The notes under the pieces are model-generated. The model ran no database searches. It worked only from the letters and a program-made list of their open reading frames with translations, and had not been told where the DNA came from. This document shows, piece by piece, positions 12,076 to 57,485 of a stretch of DNA of 64,000 nucleotides. The stretch is from an uncultured Acidobacteriaceae bacterium (GTDB lineage Bacteria; Acidobacteriota; Terriglobia; Terriglobales; Acidobacteriaceae). The translations under genes were made by a program, and so were the position numbers. The stretch is from the NCBI GenBank assembly GCA_963789425.1, contig CAWBKM010000006.1, forward strand, positions 178,160 to 242,159. Reading direction: 5' to 3'. Within the stretch, counting starts at the first letter, position 1; the number at the start of each line of letters is the position of its first letter.

Positions 12076-12127
12076 GCAAAACGGCATGGGGGGTGGGGTG
12101 CGAAGCGACGGGGGGTGGGGCGCATGT

Positions 12128-12212
12128 GAAGGAGTGAAAGAGTGAATCGGTGAATAAGTGAAGAAGTGAGCGGGGACCGAGAACGGGGAGCAAGGGAACA
12201 GGGATCGAGGGA
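12128..12212 (+). repeat. Purine-rich octamer array followed by heptamer array
   Basis: GAAGGAGT GAAAGAGT GAATCGGT GAATAAGT GAAGAAGT, then CGGGGAC CGAGAAC GGGGAGC AAGGGAA CAGGGAT CGAGGGA. Confidence 0.6.
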
Positions 12213-36443: not shown

Positions 36444-36608
36444 AAGGTTCCTCTTTGCTTCGAATTCCGACGCCGCGGGCAGGTTCAATGAGCCCGGCGC
36501 AGGTTCTCTCTTTGCCGGGTTCAGATTGCGTTCGCGCCCAAAAACGCTGCGTGCCAAATATATCTGAAGCGGCGAACGAACCAAAATCGCGCTCGCACTG
36601 TCGGCTTT

Positions 36609-36774
36609 CAGCCATCAGCCCTCAGCCGTCAGCCCGGTTCGTGCTGGGATGGACGATGGATGGTAGTTCGTGGGGTGGGCGAGGGCGTCGAACTGTAGGA
36701 AGCGCGGCAGCAAGCGAGCCGGGATGTGCGGGCGAGGACGCCCGCACGACAGCCGGCCAGGAGACCGGCGGTAC
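36609..36774. repeat. Heptamer array plus GTAG-like double-hairpin REP
   Basis: GCCATCA GCCCTCA GCCGTCA GCC near 36609; GCGGGCG-AGGA-CGCCCGC and GCCGG-N8-CCGGC-GGTAC at 36728-36774. Confidence 0.6.
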
Positions 36775-52674: not shown

Positions 52675-52778
52675 TCGCGCGCCGGCACCTCGGCGGGCCA
52701 CGATTTTCGATGCAAGAAGAGCCCTGGGCTGCGTTCTGCGGTTAGCTGGTGGTCAACTCGCCGAGCGAGGAGGCTCAT

Positions 52779-53999
52779 ATGAAGTCACTGCTTTGCGCAT
52801 TCCTCGTGGTCTTGGGCAGCCACGTGGCTTTTGCCGCGTCTCCGTCCTCTAACGCAGCCGACCAGGCCGAAGCAGTGAACGGCGGCAACGCCTTCGCCGT
52901 CGACCTCTACGCGCAACTTTCGAAGCAGTCGGGCAATCTTTTCTTTTCGCCGGAGAGCATCTCGACCGCATTTGGAATGGCGTATGCCGGCGCGCGCGGC
53001 GAGACAGCAACCGAGATGCAGCACGTATTCCACTTCACACTGCCGCAAGATCGGCTGCACCCTGCGATGGGTGCTCTGCTAGCCGAAATGAACGGTCAGC
53101 ACAACGGCTTTGAGTTGCACGTGGCCGATGCGCTGTGGGCGCAACAGGACGCAAGCTTCCTGCCGGATTACCTGAAGCTGGTTCAAACCGATTACGGCGC
53201 GGGGTTCCACCAGGTTAACTTCAAGGTTTCGCCCGAGAGCGTGCGCGCGACTATCAACGCATGGGTTGAACAGCAGACCAACAACAAAATCAAGGATCTG
53301 ATCGGCCCCGGTGCGCTCAACGCCTCAACACGACTCGTACTCACCAACGCGGTGTACTTCAAAAGCGCATGGCTGGCTCCGTTCGACGCCGAAGCCACGC
53401 AGAAAGAGGAGTTTCACCTCTCCGCCACGCAGTGGGCGATGGCGCCAATGATGAACCGGACCGGCAGCTACAGCTACTACGATGGCGGATCGTTCCAGGC
53501 GCTGGAGTTGCCCTATGCGGGCGACCAGGTCTCGATGGTCGTTCTGCTGCCGAAAAAGATCGACGGCCTTGCGGCGCTGGAGAAATCGTTCGGCTCGGGC
53601 GTGGCGGGCGATTGGATCCGGAAGCTGGAACCGGTGGACAAGGTGGTTCTCACTTTGCCGCGATTCACGATGACGCAACAGTTCGAGTTGAGCAACACTC
53701 TCGGGACCATGGGCATGGCGCAAGCCTTCAGCAATGCGGCGGATTTCTCGGGCATGACCGGCAAGCCCGACTTCGCCATCTCCGCCGCCATTCACAAGGC
53801 CTACATCGACGTGGACGAGCTGGGCACTGAGGCGGCCGCGGCAACGGCGATCACGTTTGTTGCGACGGCGATGCAACGGCGGGTCCCTGAGCCGCCGCCC
53901 ATCGTCTTCCGCGCCGACCATCCCTTCCTGTTCATTCTGCTCGATACACGATCGGGGAGCATGCTCTTTCTCGGGCGCGTCGCCGACCCGACAAAATAG
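52779..53999 (+). CDS. Secreted serpin (serine protease inhibitor)
   Basis: NLFFSPESI, LVLTNAVYFK, LELPY, LPRF, hinge ELGTEAAAAT, FRADHPFLF, LFLGRV.DP; signal peptide. Confidence 0.95.
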   Translation: MKSLLCAFLVVLGSHVAFAASPSSNAADQAEAVNGGNAFAVDLYAQLSKQSGNLFFSPESISTAFGMAYAGARGETATEMQHVFHFTLPQDRLHPAMGALLAEMNGQHNGFELHVADALWAQQDASFLPDYLKLVQTDYGAGFHQVNFKVSPESVRATINAWVEQQTNNKIKDLIGPGALNASTRLVLTNAVYFKSAWLAPFDAEATQKEEFHLSATQWAMAPMMNRTGSYSYYDGGSFQALELPYAGDQVSMVVLLPKKIDGLAALEKSFGSGVAGDWIRKLEPVDKVVLTLPRFTMTQQFELSNTLGTMGMAQAFSNAADFSGMTGKPDFAISAAIHKAYIDVDELGTEAAAATAITFVATAMQRRVPEPPPIVFRADHPFLFILLDTRSGSMLFLGRVADPTK

Positions 54000-54050
54000 A
54001 GCCACCGCCGTAGAGACGATGGCTCCAGTTGATGCGAAAGATTCTGAAAG

Positions 54051-55907
54051 TTACTTCCCGACGGGAAGCCTGACAAGGCGCGCCTCGAGCAAGGCTTCAA
54101 TCACCTTGAGCGCTTCAACCGCTGATTCAGCGACCGGCTCGTCAACCTGAACAACGGCCAGCGCTTTAACGAGTTCCCCTCCCCGTCGCGTCTCTGCACG
54201 CTCGCGGCCCAGCGCGAAGTTGGCGATGTTGACGCCCTGCTGGCCGAGAATCGTTCCGATGCGGCCGATGACGCCGGGCACGTCGAGGTTGCGGCAGACA
54301 ACGAGGGTTCCCTCAAGCGGAGCCTCGACATCAATGCCGTCGAAAGCGAGCAAGCGCGGATGCTCACCTCGAATGACGGTGGCGCTGGCGCGGCTTTCTC
54401 CCTGCGCGGTGTGCATAACAATCGTAAGGACCGAGGCCGCGCCGCCGCGATGGCTTTCTTGCCTCTCCTCGTGAACGCGTACGCCGCGCTCCGCCGCCAC
54501 GGCTGCTGCATTGATCCGATTCACATTCTCCGAGCCTTGCAGCAGACCCGCGATCGCCGCATTGCGCACCAGCTCGGTTCTAGCTTCGGCGAGCGTGCCG
54601 CCGTAGACAATGTGAATCGAGTCAATGCCTGACTTTCCGCCCCCCTTGCCGACATGCGCCAGAAACGATCCCAGCCGCCCGGCGAGGTCGATGTAGGGAG
54701 CCAGTTGCACATATTCCTCGCGGCTCAATGACGGAACGTTTACGGCGTTCTGCACCACGCCCAGCTTGAGGTAATCGCAAACCTGATGCGCGATCTGGAT
54801 GCCAACGGCTTCCTGAGCCTCAGACGTAGATCCGGCAATGTGCGGAGAGAGCATCACATTGTCGAGGTCGAAGTAGGGCGAATCCCTGGGCGGCTCGACA
54901 GCGAATACGTCGAGCGCCGCTCCCGCCACCTGCCCACCCTTGAGTGCAGCGGCCAGATCGGCATCGCATACCAGCTCGCCGCGCGCGCAATTGACGATGC
55001 GCACGCCCTTCTTCATCATGGCGATGTTTTTTGCGTTGATGATTCCCTGCGTCTGCGGCGTGAGGCCCACGTGCAGCGTGATGTAGTCGGAATGTGCAAA
55101 CAGCTCCTCGACCGGAACGAGAGTGATTCCGTTTTCGCGCGCCAGGGCCGCGGAGACAAAGGGATCGGTTCCCATGATCTCCATGCCGAAGCCGCGCGCG
55201 CGTTTTGCCACTTCAAGGCCGATTTTGCCCAGACCTAAAATGCCGAGCATTTTGCCGCGCAGCTCGGTGCCTTGCAGGTTCTTCTTCTCCCACTTGCCTG
55301 CGTGCATGGTGGCATTGGCTGCAGGCACTTTTCGCGCCAGTGCGATCATCAGGCCGATCGTCAGTTCGGCAACGGCGACCGCGTTGGCGCCGGGCGTGTT
55401 CATGACCACAATGCCGCGCCGCGTGGCGGCCTCGGCGTCGATGTTGTCCACGCCTACGCCGGCCCGGCCAATCACACGGAGCTTTGGTGCGTGCTCCAAC
55501 AATGCGTCGTCAACCTGGACCGCGCTACGAACAACGAGCGCGTCGGCATCGGCCAGCGCAGCAGGCAAACCTTCAGGCAACTGATCGTGCGTTTTGACTT
55601 CCCATCCCGACTCGGCCGCAAAGACTGCCAGAGTGGCCGGAGAAACTTTTTCCGCCAGTACGATCTTCATGGCTGCTCCCTTGTCCGCCGCGGCGGACGC
55701 GCTCATGTACTCATCAAAGCGAATGCCCTGCTGTTCGCAGAGCAGGTCGAACATGCGCAGCACCGCCGCGTGTGGCTTGCCCTCGCCGCGCTCGTATTTG
55801 GTCAGCGAGTTGGGGTGCACTCCCAGCCGCTCCGCCATTTCGTATTGATAGAGATCGAGCTGCTTGCGCGCGATCAGCAGCTTTTCTCCGAAAGTCAGGT
55901 CAGGCAT
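54051..55907 (-). CDS. serA: XRE-type HTH fused in frame to D-3-phosphoglycerate dehydrogenase (ASB+ACT type); internal start at 55670 gives a stand-alone 539-aa SerA
   Basis: Residues 1-67 FGEKLLIARKQLDLYQYEMAERLGVHPNSLTKYERGEGKP; from M80 VRSA, RAGVGVDNID, NTPGAN, GLGKIG, VNCARG, SPHIAGST, ACT VPGVIG...VNIANF. Confidence 0.9.
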   Translation of the reverse strand: MPDLTFGEKLLIARKQLDLYQYEMAERLGVHPNSLTKYERGEGKPHAAVLRMFDLLCEQQGIRFDEYMSASAAADKGAAMKIVLAEKVSPATLAVFAAESGWEVKTHDQLPEGLPAALADADALVVRSAVQVDDALLEHAPKLRVIGRAGVGVDNIDAEAATRRGIVVMNTPGANAVAVAELTIGLMIALARKVPAANATMHAGKWEKKNLQGTELRGKMLGILGLGKIGLEVAKRARGFGMEIMGTDPFVSAALARENGITLVPVEELFAHSDYITLHVGLTPQTQGIINAKNIAMMKKGVRIVNCARGELVCDADLAAALKGGQVAGAALDVFAVEPPRDSPYFDLDNVMLSPHIAGSTSEAQEAVGIQIAHQVCDYLKLGVVQNAVNVPSLSREEYVQLAPYIDLAGRLGSFLAHVGKGGGKSGIDSIHIVYGGTLAEARTELVRNAAIAGLLQGSENVNRINAAAVAAERGVRVHEERQESHRGGAASVLTIVMHTAQGESRASATVIRGEHPRLLAFDGIDVEAPLEGTLVVCRNLDVPGVIGRIGTILGQQGVNIANFALGRERAETRRGGELVKALAVVQVDEPVAESAVEALKVIEALLEARLVRLPVGK

Positions 55908-55914
55908 CGAACGA

Positions 55915-56066
55915 CAGCTCCTAGCCTCTAGCTTCTAGCTCTTAGCTAGATGTCGGTAGAGCCCGCGTTTTCCCATCCTTCATGGCCCGGAAAATCTCGC
56001 GGAATCCAAAATCATTGCGAATCACCGCGAACAAGCTAGCGGCTAGAAGCTAGGAGCTAGCGGCTG
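55915..56066. repeat. Divergent GCTAGRA heptamer arrays forming an inverted repeat across the aminotransferase-serA junction
   Basis: Minus 55946-55915: GCTAAGA GCTAGAA GCTAGAG GCTAGGA GCTG; plus 56035-56066: GCTAGCG GCTAGAA GCTAGGA GCTAGCG GCTG. Confidence 0.8.
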
Positions 56067-57228
56067 CTTTGGCATACACTTCCTGCGCCGCGGCCACGGC
56101 CTGGCCGAACTTTACCGGCAGTCCGAGATTGTCCTTGGCGATATGCTCCATGGCGCCAAGCAGTGCGATGGTGTCGAGATAGTCGAAGAAGCCGAGATGG
56201 GCGACGCGAAAGATCTTGCCCTGCATCTCGCCCTGGCCGTTTGCGGCTACCAGCGCAAATTTCGACTTGAGCGCCTTGACGACAACACCCGAGTCCATGC
56301 CTTCAGGCACTGCAACGGCTGTGGCGGCGGCAGCAGGAGCAGTGGGCGCGAAGAGAGTGAAGCCGAGAGCTACGAGGCCGGCGCGCGTGGCCGCGGCGTT
56401 CACCTGTGCGTTGTCGATCAGAGCGATGCGGCCTTTCTCGAGATCGCCGCCCGCCTGCCCTGCAATGTAATCGAGCGCGGCGCCAAGCGCGGCAACAAGC
56501 GCAACAGCCGGCGTGTAGGCGCTTTCGCCCTTGACCGCGTTCTTGCGCTCTTTGCGCAGGTCGAAGTAGTAGCGCGGATTCTTCGTGGTCTCCATGGCCG
56601 CCCATGCGTGATCGCTCACGCTCAAATAGGCCAGGCCGGGAGGAATCATGACAGCTTTTTGCGAGCCGCCGATGAGCACATCGATGCCCCATCCGTCGAC
56701 ATCGAAGTGCGTGGTGCCGAGGCCAGTGATGCCATCGACGACAAGCAGCGTGTTCGGTGCGACCTCATCGCGGAGTTTCGCGATGGCCTGGATGTCGTGA
56801 CGGACCGCCGTCGAGGTCTCGGTGGCCTGCGTGTAAATGACTTTGTGTTCCGGCTTGAGCGCGGCGCGAACCGCTGCCAGGTCGAAGGTCTGTCCGTAGG
56901 GAGCGGTGACCACTTCGGGCTCGCAGCCGAAGGCCTTCGCAAGGCCTGTCCATCGCTCGCCAAATTTTCCGGCCGTGAGCACCAGCACCTTGTCGCCCGG
57001 CGAGGTCAGGTTCGAAACCGAGGCCTCCATAGCGCCGGTGCCGGAGCAGGAGAGGAGCAGCACATCGTTCTTGGTGCCGACAAACACTTTGAGCTGGGCG
57101 AGCACCTTCTGGAAGAGGGCGCGGAACTCAGCAGTACGGTGATGCATGTCGGCCGCAGCCATGGCGAATTGAGCTGCGGGAAGGAGGGGCGTTGGGCCGG
57201 GAGTATAAAGGCGAGTCTTGCGGATCAT
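56050..57228 (-). CDS. Class V PLP aminotransferase (serine-pyruvate/alanine-glyoxylate type), probable phosphoserine aminotransferase
   Basis: LYTPGPT, HHRT, SGTGAME, GKFGERW, ETST, VDGITG, GGSQKA, FRVAHLG; ATG 57228. Confidence 0.9.
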   Translation of the reverse strand: MIRKTRLYTPGPTPLLPAAQFAMAAADMHHRTAEFRALFQKVLAQLKVFVGTKNDVLLLSCSGTGAMEASVSNLTSPGDKVLVLTAGKFGERWTGLAKAFGCEPEVVTAPYGQTFDLAAVRAALKPEHKVIYTQATETSTAVRHDIQAIAKLRDEVAPNTLLVVDGITGLGTTHFDVDGWGIDVLIGGSQKAVMIPPGLAYLSVSDHAWAAMETTKNPRYYFDLRKERKNAVKGESAYTPAVALVAALGAALDYIAGQAGGDLEKGRIALIDNAQVNAAATRAGLVALGFTLFAPTAPAAAATAVAVPEGMDSGVVVKALKSKFALVAANGQGEMQGKIFRVAHLGFFDYLDTIALLGAMEHIAKDNLGLPVKFGQAVAAAQEVYAKAAASS

Positions 57229-57267
57229 TTTTTCCTCGCTTTGGACTGGCATTTGAAGTGAGCCAGC

Positions 57268-57312
57268 AATCACATAATACACACTTTTGTGATTTTTGTG
57301 GTTATTCTTGTG
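57268..57312. promoter_or_regulatory. Candidate operator upstream of the aminotransferase-serA operon
   Basis: AATCACA-N13-TGTGATT (57268-57294) overlapping minus-strand TATTAT; TTGTG at 57287, 57296 and 57308. Confidence 0.5.
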
Positions 57313-57485
57313 GAAATGCCCCGGTAAGGCCCTGAATGCGGGCAAAATAGCCCCCTTTCACTCTGATCTTCCAAAGTCGGTACAATTCTTCTTTGGTCGC
57401 CTCTCAAAGGCCCGCTTCGAGACCCGGAGCGGCCCCGAAGGAGCTTAAGCGAACCCCATAAAAAGCGAACGCCAGGAGAGAATAG

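Follow-up and report, generated by a model that had tools for sequence, protein, structure and literature searches.

Why would a bacterium join a DNA-binding domain to its only phosphoglycerate dehydrogenase and keep a ribosome-binding site between the two? The question is raised by a gene in a 64,000-nt stretch of DNA (the window; contig CAWBKM010000006.1 of assembly GCA_963789425.1) from an uncultured Acidobacteriaceae bacterium. The gene encodes an XRE-type helix-turn-helix (HTH) domain followed by a complete D-3-phosphoglycerate dehydrogenase (PGDH, SerA). The best reading of the comparisons described below, to which we assign a probability of about 0.62, is that this protein, HTH-SerA, would be an autorepressing trigger enzyme made as two isoforms. 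The parts of the gene are as follows.

54051..55907, minus strand: long open reading frame (ORF) HTH-linker-SerA, 618 aa plus stop; full length conserved across genus relatives.
55707..55907, minus strand: XRE/HTH_3 DNA-binding domain, residues 1-67, supported by Pfam, the AlphaFold2 model, and the ratio of nonsynonymous to synonymous change (dN/dS).
55671..55706, minus strand: linker, residues 68-79 (MSASAAADKGAA), 12 aa; low model confidence (predicted local distance difference test, pLDDT), dN/dS 0.63, variable.
54051..55670, minus strand: short ORF from an internal ATG (M80), a plain type I PGDH of 539 aa plus stop; predicted second isoform.
55918..55922, minus strand: Shine-Dalgarno (SD) sequence of the long start, AGGAG, 10 nt before ATG 55907; within the 3′ arm of a heptamer-repeat stem.
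55676..55682, minus strand: internal SD, AAGGGAG, 5 nt before ATG 55670.

The sequence-only reading of this locus had described a single unbroken 618-aa frame in which about 67 N-terminal residues form an XRE HTH joined to a complete SerA with ASB and ACT domains, with an SD before each of the two starts, and all of this was confirmed. The ORF list gives one ORF with an ATG start, and the stop-to-stop frame extends only 9 codons further upstream. In Pfam, HTH_3 covers residues 13-50 with 31.2 bits (cut-off, 23) and is followed by PF00389 (2-Hacid_dh), PF02826 (2-Hacid_dh_C), PF19304 (PGDH_inter, the ASB domain, residues 402-520), and PF01842 (ACT, residues 536-604), all above their cut-offs. 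The NCBIfam PGDH equivalog TIGR01327 scored 545.6 bits compared to a cut-off of 454, and its match, at residues 81-614, takes in all of the 525-position profile. No other PGDH scored above the cut-off in the source genome, a soil-metagenome assembly of 4.3 Mb that is 97.8% complete.

The enzyme part is, by its domain composition, a type I PGDH with substrate-binding, NAD-binding, ASB, and ACT domains. It matched the Mycobacterium tuberculosis PGDH at an E value of 3e-88 with phmmer and 2e-49 with Foldseek, where 1YGY was the best structural match, and it is 35% identical to M. tuberculosis SerA1 over ∼550 columns. SerA1 (PDB 1YGY/3DC2/3DDN) is the same four-domain enzyme, compared to which the fusion adds 79 N-terminal residues with the XRE HTH and the tether. 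Residues R309, E338, and H356 and the GxGxxG motif (G225-G230), which we take from general knowledge of the 2-hydroxyacid dehydrogenase family to be the catalytic Arg-Glu-His and the NAD-binding motif, respectively, have counterparts at the aligned positions of the M. tuberculosis enzyme and show conservation of at least 90%. Judged by its sole-copy status and intact catalytic residues, the PGDH part looks fully competent. In the M. tuberculosis enzyme, L-serine is held at the ACT interface by Tyr461, Asp463, and Asn481′ (PMC6300728). Here, Asp463 and Asn481 are conserved as D542 and N560, and Tyr461 is replaced by Asn540; the two conserved contacts would allow serine sensing but do not show it.

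The HTH domain has evolved like a working part of the protein. Pairwise Nei-Gojobori comparisons of 24 orthologues gave dN/dS values of 0.10 for HTH residues 1-67, 0.63 for the linker, 0.08 for the catalytic core, and 0.14 for ASB plus ACT, with synonymous differences of ∼0.6 in every region. On these ratios, the HTH is selected as protein, under purifying selection similar to that on the enzyme, and the linker is almost neutral. In the AlphaFold2 monomer model (mean pLDDT, 83), four HTH helices (residues 6-17, 21-28, 32-39, and 47-60) have pLDDT values of 88 to 93, and residues 70-76 fall below 50, so that the tether is disordered and flexible and the HTH stands as a domain of its own. The solved sequences nearest to the domain are those of MqsA, PezA, and controller C proteins of restriction-modification systems (E values of 1e-4 to 3e-3), together with the repressor P22 C2; all are dimeric repressors with palindromic sites. 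The recognition-helix region of the domain is conserved. The HTH is a predicted sequence-specific DNA binder, with a candidate operator that comes from comparative genomics.

The start of the enzyme part has also been preserved, at the nucleotide level. In alignments, M80 falls precisely on the start codon of every non-fusion SerA (MKIVLAEK), and the internal ATG is kept in all 105 fusion loci (25 collected first and 80 fetched later). It is preceded by the pattern A(A/G)G GG(A/G) G, 9 nt ending 6 nt upstream, and AAG GGA Gnn was retained in 23 of the first 25 orthologues and then in about 72 of 75. Among 75 loci, the Lys/Arg codon is AAG or AGG in 70, and glycine is encoded by GGA in 59 and by GGG in 13. 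By comparison, glycine codons in the same genes overall are 63% GGC and 15% GGA, and the protein-constrained glycines of the ERGEGK segment of the HTH use GGC, unlike the linker glycine. A binomial calculation for at least 21 GGA in 24 against the 15% background gave a P value of ∼1e-14, which is not corrected for phylogeny and overstates independence because the sequences are related; synonymous sites elsewhere, however, are near saturation. Furthermore, the codon after the glycine (-2) begins with G in 23 of the first 25 loci, and its residue varies among A, D, E, and V. The non-preferred glycine codons and the fixed G with a varying residue point to selection at the nucleotide level. In non-fusion relatives, the serA ATG is preceded at equal distance by AGGAG or GGGAG. 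The same picture emerges when the starts are compared by their predicted pairing to the 16S anti-SD:

M80: mean of -6.8 kcal/mol, with 92% at or below -5.
Long start: mean of -5.35 kcal/mol, with 62% at or below -5.
All other in-frame ATGs: mean of -2.2 kcal/mol, with 17% at or below -5.

M80 therefore has the strongest anti-SD pairing among the conserved Met codons of the gene. We conclude from these patterns that the ancestral serA SD and ATG have been maintained by selection inside the linker, and the simplest reason would be that the retained start still initiates, giving a 539-aa enzyme that lacks the HTH.

An alternative is that an autoregulating HTH-SerA is made as one protein only, with an internal SD and ATG that persist not for initiation but owing to, for example, a K-G-x-x-M protein constraint or a programmed pause of the ribosome at the domain boundary that helps folding. 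Protein constraint can indeed yield SD-like strings: the ERGEGK segment upstream of M52 pairs at -5.0 kcal/mol in 47% of the sequences. Also, M80 opens the conserved first beta-strand MKIVLAEK. However, glycine codons that are GGA or GGG in ∼96% of the loci despite the preference for GGC, and a -2 codon that stays G-initial though its amino acid changes, argue for selection on the nucleotides. The remaining linker is nearly neutral, and the spacing and sequence before M80 match the functional SD of non-fusion serA genes. We consider this alternative unlikely, although it survives better than the other two discussed below.

If the HTH binds DNA, where would it bind? A candidate site was found in front of the operon in which HTH-SerA is the second gene. 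The relevant features are the following.

56050..57228, minus strand: class-V aminotransferase (serC-like; Pfam Aminotran_5), first gene of the operon; upstream of serA in fusion and non-fusion genomes.
57270..57301, minus strand: candidate operator CCACA-aaaa-TCACA-aaag-TGTGT-atta-TGTGA, 32 bp; four CACA/TGTG boxes with dyad symmetry.
57297..57302, minus strand: -35-like hexamer, ACCACA here and TTCACA in the consensus; coincides with box 1.
57274..57279, minus strand: -10-like hexamer TATTAT, flanked by boxes 3 and 4; every site has TATTMT.
57309..57317, minus strand: extra conserved element ATTTCCACA, ∼8 nt upstream of box 1, in many orthologous promoters; weakly conserved among the 92 sites described below.

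The mechanical ORF of the aminotransferase begins at TTG 57345, so that 57229-57345 on the minus strand is an extra part. Since homology begins at MIRKTRLY and the SD GAGGA precedes ATG 57228, the true start is ATG 57228, and the candidate operator, 42 nt upstream of it, lies in true intergenic DNA. When the upstream regions of 24 fusion genomes were aligned, it appeared as one conserved island in otherwise unalignable DNA. The consensus of 92 distinct sites is attCACAaAAAcCACAaaanTGTGTATTcTGTGATT, a dyad of the form TCACA-N4-CACA-N5-TGTGT-N4-TGTGA with box spacings of 9, 10, and 9 bp. The -35-like and -10-like hexamers are 17 to 18 nt apart and are covered by the palindrome, so a protein bound there would occlude the core promoter. 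For the ATTTCCACA element, a fifth half-site and an UP-like element are both conceivable. Interpreting TGTGA/TCACA as a CRP-like site was rejected, as the order and spacing are TCACA...TGTGA and not TGTGA-N6-TCACA.

The distribution of the palindrome follows that of the fusion. In this genome it is the sole match, even with three mismatches permitted. With up to two mismatches, it was found in 25 of 25 genus genomes, almost always as one copy and, at every locus that allowed a cross-check, in front of the aminotransferase gene; extra matches at the same place on the other strand arise because the palindrome is symmetric. None of 16 sister-family genomes had it, and a reversed-pattern control gave one match. 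At the operon itself, it was present in 24 of 24 loci and then in 66 of another 68 species whose flanking sequence was long enough, compared to 0 of 18 at the same promoter of non-fusion Acidobacteriaceae. All 18 of these non-fusion promoters carry a different conserved pattern instead, cATTATAGAAAg ... TACAAT. The palindrome and the fusion co-occur across the deepest splits of the clade, where flanking DNA is unalignable, and where the divergent gene yqeY is not adjacent, the palindrome stays with the aminotransferase gene. Such a pattern would be expected if the fused HTH used the palindrome as its operator and had a single operon as its regulon.

The same non-fusion pattern, cATTATAGAAAg ... 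TACAAT, was seen at loci L077-L096, ∼40 to 90 nt upstream of the serC-like start. Read on the opposite strand, its first element is TATAAT, probably the -10 of yqeY.

A second alternative is that the HTH is a protein-protein or oligomerization module, or binds some other nucleic acid, and that the palindrome serves another clade-specific factor. Fusion and motif arose on one branch, so that their association is phylogenetically single; four boxes 9 to 10 bp apart are unusual for a simple XRE dimer; and the predicted binding of the HTH to the palindrome comes from comparison of sequences. Against this, the domain matches XRE repressors that bind DNA (MqsA, PezA, C proteins, and P22 C2) and conserves the recognition-helix region, the palindrome has a single genomic copy at the promoter of the operon that encodes the HTH, and this genome has no paralogous XRE of this type. 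We regard this explanation as improbable, slightly more so than the one-protein alternative above.

The fusion itself is near certain to be real. The HTH/SerA junction is crossed by contigs of four metagenome runs (spanning 55641-55874, 55400-55701, 55400-55710, and 55654-55745) with no inserted or deleted letters. Residues 1-85 matched 1,701 proteins of similar length, and the best 120 of the 1,701 all had the HTH_3 plus PGDH architecture; the matches with source-given names are called only "phosphoglycerate dehydrogenase," of Terracidiphilus, a public annotation that conceals the extra HTH domain. Among species-representative genomes, at least 449 encode the first 100 residues, and the 80 that were fetched are all Terracidiphilus or Acidobacteriaceae metagenome-assembled genomes.

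An artifact can be rejected as extremely improbable, whether an error of sequencing or assembly that fused serA with a separate small XRE gene or an upstream part that is never translated. The suspicion stems from the ATGA at 55670 (gccATGAag), which is present but without consequence because no relative has a stop there, and nothing else was found in its favor. The contigs of four independent runs show no indel, the same unbroken frame occurs in more than 1,700 proteins and at least 449 species-level genomes, and the HTH dN/dS of 0.10 means that this part is translated.

How did the fusion arise? Within the genus, a full-length match (residues 1-618) was found in 19 of 24 other genomes, and four more (G004, G010, G012, and G017) have partial or split copies that still include the HTH part. 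Two such copies, G017:C1:297243-299076 and G012:C9:610461-612294, have the fusion gene in two overlapping frames, either a frameshift (pseudogene) or an assembly error. A family sample of 201 genomes from 142 genera has the fusion only in the own genus, in g88 (two genomes), and in g11 (one genome). In the other sampled genera (about 139 of 142), the fusion is absent and SerA aligns from query residue ∼76 to 80. In a maximum-likelihood tree of the SerA part alone, 24 of 24 fusion proteins fell on one side of a branch with support of 100/99, which means one fusion origin and then vertical descent. Gene order in non-fusion relatives is the same (divergent yqeY, class-V aminotransferase, serA). 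No HTH homologue was found in the serC-serA neighborhood of at least 40 non-fusion relatives, so a separate HTH gene beside serA was rejected as the source of the fusion, and no paralogue of the HTH was found within this genome. The shared gene order without an HTH and the lack of a paralogue indicate that the HTH segment was inserted between the aminotransferase gene and serA. The insertion, of ∼240 nt of HTH-coding DNA, happened once and is in frame with serA through its old leader. The linker, whose length and sequence differ freely among orthologues, is by its position the former 5′ leader of serA, now translated.

Free-standing orthologues of the HTH were also rejected: the short, highly identical matches from the representative library all proved to be pieces of the fusion, cut short or frameshifted, and the nearest true small XRE proteins are only 37 to 42% identical to it. 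Remote relatives (P0133, P0134, P0140, P0142, P0150, and others) are proteins of 340 to 1,900 aa with 4 to 9 tandem XRE-HTH repeats and ∼33% identity.

How might such a protein work? In the autorepressor reading, the sole PGDH with an XRE HTH on a flexible tether would be a bifunctional trigger enzyme. Ribosomes would start at two sites, ATG 55907 giving the 618-aa HTH-SerA and ATG 55670 giving the 539-aa plain SerA. Assembly into the PGDH homotetramer is presumed (the structure prediction covered the monomer), and since PGDH subunits form tetramers, those with long subunits would present at least two HTH domains. These domains would bind the candidate four-box palindrome over the -35 and -10 of the serC-like/HTH-serA operon and repress it, and the outcome would be negative autoregulation of the phosphorylated serine pathway. 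Both ideas had been put forward in the sequence-only reading, and both gain support: self-regulation from the purifying selection on the HTH and from a palindrome that is fusion-only, single-copy, and placed over the core promoter, and two isoforms from an internal SD and ATG that are kept via non-preferred codons, with anti-SD pairing that beats the upstream start.

More speculatively, in type I PGDHs, serine at the ACT interface and the oligomeric state are known to change (PMC6300728), and serine binding there or a change of oligomeric state might shift the geometry of the N termini and so modulate DNA binding. The ratio of the two starts might likewise set the HTH count per tetramer. In the same vein, the sequence-only reading had suggested that DNA binding could respond to serine or NAD(H) status and that mixed oligomers could tune repression. 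The fuller model, in which the tetrameric enzyme is its own serine-responsive repressor, the heads per tetramer are set by competing starts on one mRNA, and the four-box operator is matched to a tetramer with up to four HTH domains, is tentative and, in our estimate, rather doubtful. If it were true, repression would read enzyme abundance and end-product level through one protein.

Several points weigh against the autorepressor reading. First, it presumes that two tethered HTH domains of a PGDH tetramer reach adjacent half-sites. Second, one of the three serine-contact residues differs, M. tuberculosis Tyr461 being Asn here. Third, the internal SD is weak in the two deepest-branching genomes (AAAGGC in L027 and AAAGGA in L028), and protein-level constraint might partly explain the K-G pair before M80. 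Fourth, fusion and motif have a common branch of origin, so that their co-occurrence counts as a single historical event, and another clade-specific regulator could use the palindrome. Finally, a search for RNA runs holding the stretch found none.

Compared to known systems, HTH-SerA would be, as far as sequence comparison goes, a variant of the trigger enzyme with an unusual retained internal start. The sequence-only reading had named no described HTH-SerA, and literature searches likewise found no described HTH-PGDH fusion. A 2018 review of PGDHs has types I to III only and mentions no HTH or DNA-binding domain (PMC6300728). Another trigger enzyme with its own DNA-binding domain is the archaeal RbkR (PMC5397151). 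HTH-SerA resembles RbkR and the bacterial proteins PutA, BirA, and NadR in that a pathway enzyme and a DNA-binding domain share one polypeptide, and the candidate target here is the operon of its own pathway. PutA combines a ribbon-helix-helix domain with proline dehydrogenase, BirA a winged HTH with biotin ligase, and NadR an HTH, also N-terminal and of the XRE/HTH_3 type, with nicotinamide mononucleotide adenylyltransferase/kinase. HTH-SerA differs from all four in being a 2-hydroxyacid dehydrogenase of amino acid biosynthesis, in its pathway, and in having a predicted regulon of a single operon. To our knowledge, a second start yielding an enzyme without its HTH is not a described feature of PutA, BirA, NadR, or RbkR.

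A parallel in architecture is BzdR of Azoarcus, in which an XRE HTH is joined by a linker to a shikimate-kinase-like domain (PMC3602430). The authors of that work proposed that such regulators evolved by fusion of an HTH with an enzyme and built an active enzyme-HTH chimera as a "missing link" (PMC3602430). Like HTH-SerA, BzdR has an N-terminal XRE HTH linked to an enzyme fold. However, its enzyme domain is catalytically dead and serves only as an effector sensor, whereas the enzyme of HTH-SerA is the sole PGDH and looks competent. Being so, it would be a natural example of an intermediate between enzyme and regulator, captured while the enzyme is still essential; if the reading is true, it would be a natural "missing link."

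In-frame dual starts are known from IF2 (alpha/beta), ClpB, and CheA (CheA-L/S). As in these, an internal in-frame ATG with its own SD would give a shorter isoform minus one domain. The difference is that the internal start is here the ancestral start of the gene, kept after the gain of an upstream domain, and that the products are predicted from sequence. The closest solved HTHs, the C-terminal HTH of MqsA (PDB 3FMY/3GN5), PezA, and the C proteins, belong to dimeric XRE repressors that bind palindromes at their own promoters. Identity to them is low, HTH-SerA has neither a zinc domain nor a toxin partner, and its candidate operator has four boxes, not two.

Enzymes that double as transcription factors, such as PutA, BirA, and NadR, are few and are textbook cases of direct metabolic feedback on genes. 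If the autorepressor reading is true, the committed enzyme of serine biosynthesis joins this list, in a simple system of one protein, one candidate operator, and one operon. The host group is abundant in peat and acidic soils, its regulation is little known, and the fusion is fixed in hundreds of its species. The retained ancestral start suggests a general route by which a gene may gain a regulatory domain and keep its original product.

Two other features flank the HTH-serA gene.

55908..56049, minus strand: spacer between the aminotransferase gene and HTH-serA, 142 nt, with inverted heptamer arrays (AGCTAGN).
53997..54027, minus strand: terminator-like hairpin and T tract, directly 3′ of the serA stop.

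The heptamer arrays of the spacer, detected with Tandem Repeats Finder at 55916-55947 and 56033-56060, pair into an 18+7-bp stem (dG, -70.3 kcal/mol; z, -2.85) whose 3′ arm includes the SD (AGGAG) of the long start. Among orthologues, the spacer measures 3 to 278 nt and has unrelated heptamers in the same inverted layout or none. A heptamer hairpin was therefore rejected as a conserved part of the mechanism, being absent or built of unrelated heptamers in many orthologues, and is a local modifier at most; the stem may lower translation of the long form in some species. Further heptamer arrays in the window, at 267-292, 12126-12169, and 36608-36634, are inverted pairs in intergenic spacers, and arrays also occur upstream of the HTH start in L007, L009, L010, L014, L016, L018, L020, and L024. 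The repeat unit at the same locus varies by species (AGCTAGN, AGTGAAG, GCGGRGTTA, and CAGTKGG). Metagenome contigs join the same arrays to other flanks, which means that they recur around the genomes. In appearance they are a rapidly evolving class of repeats, reminiscent of the cyanobacterial STRR (short tandemly repeated repetitive) heptamers. Convergent with serA, at 52749-53999 on the plus strand, lies a gene for a bacterial serpin (Pfam Serpin, 383 bits) with an N-terminal signal-like segment.

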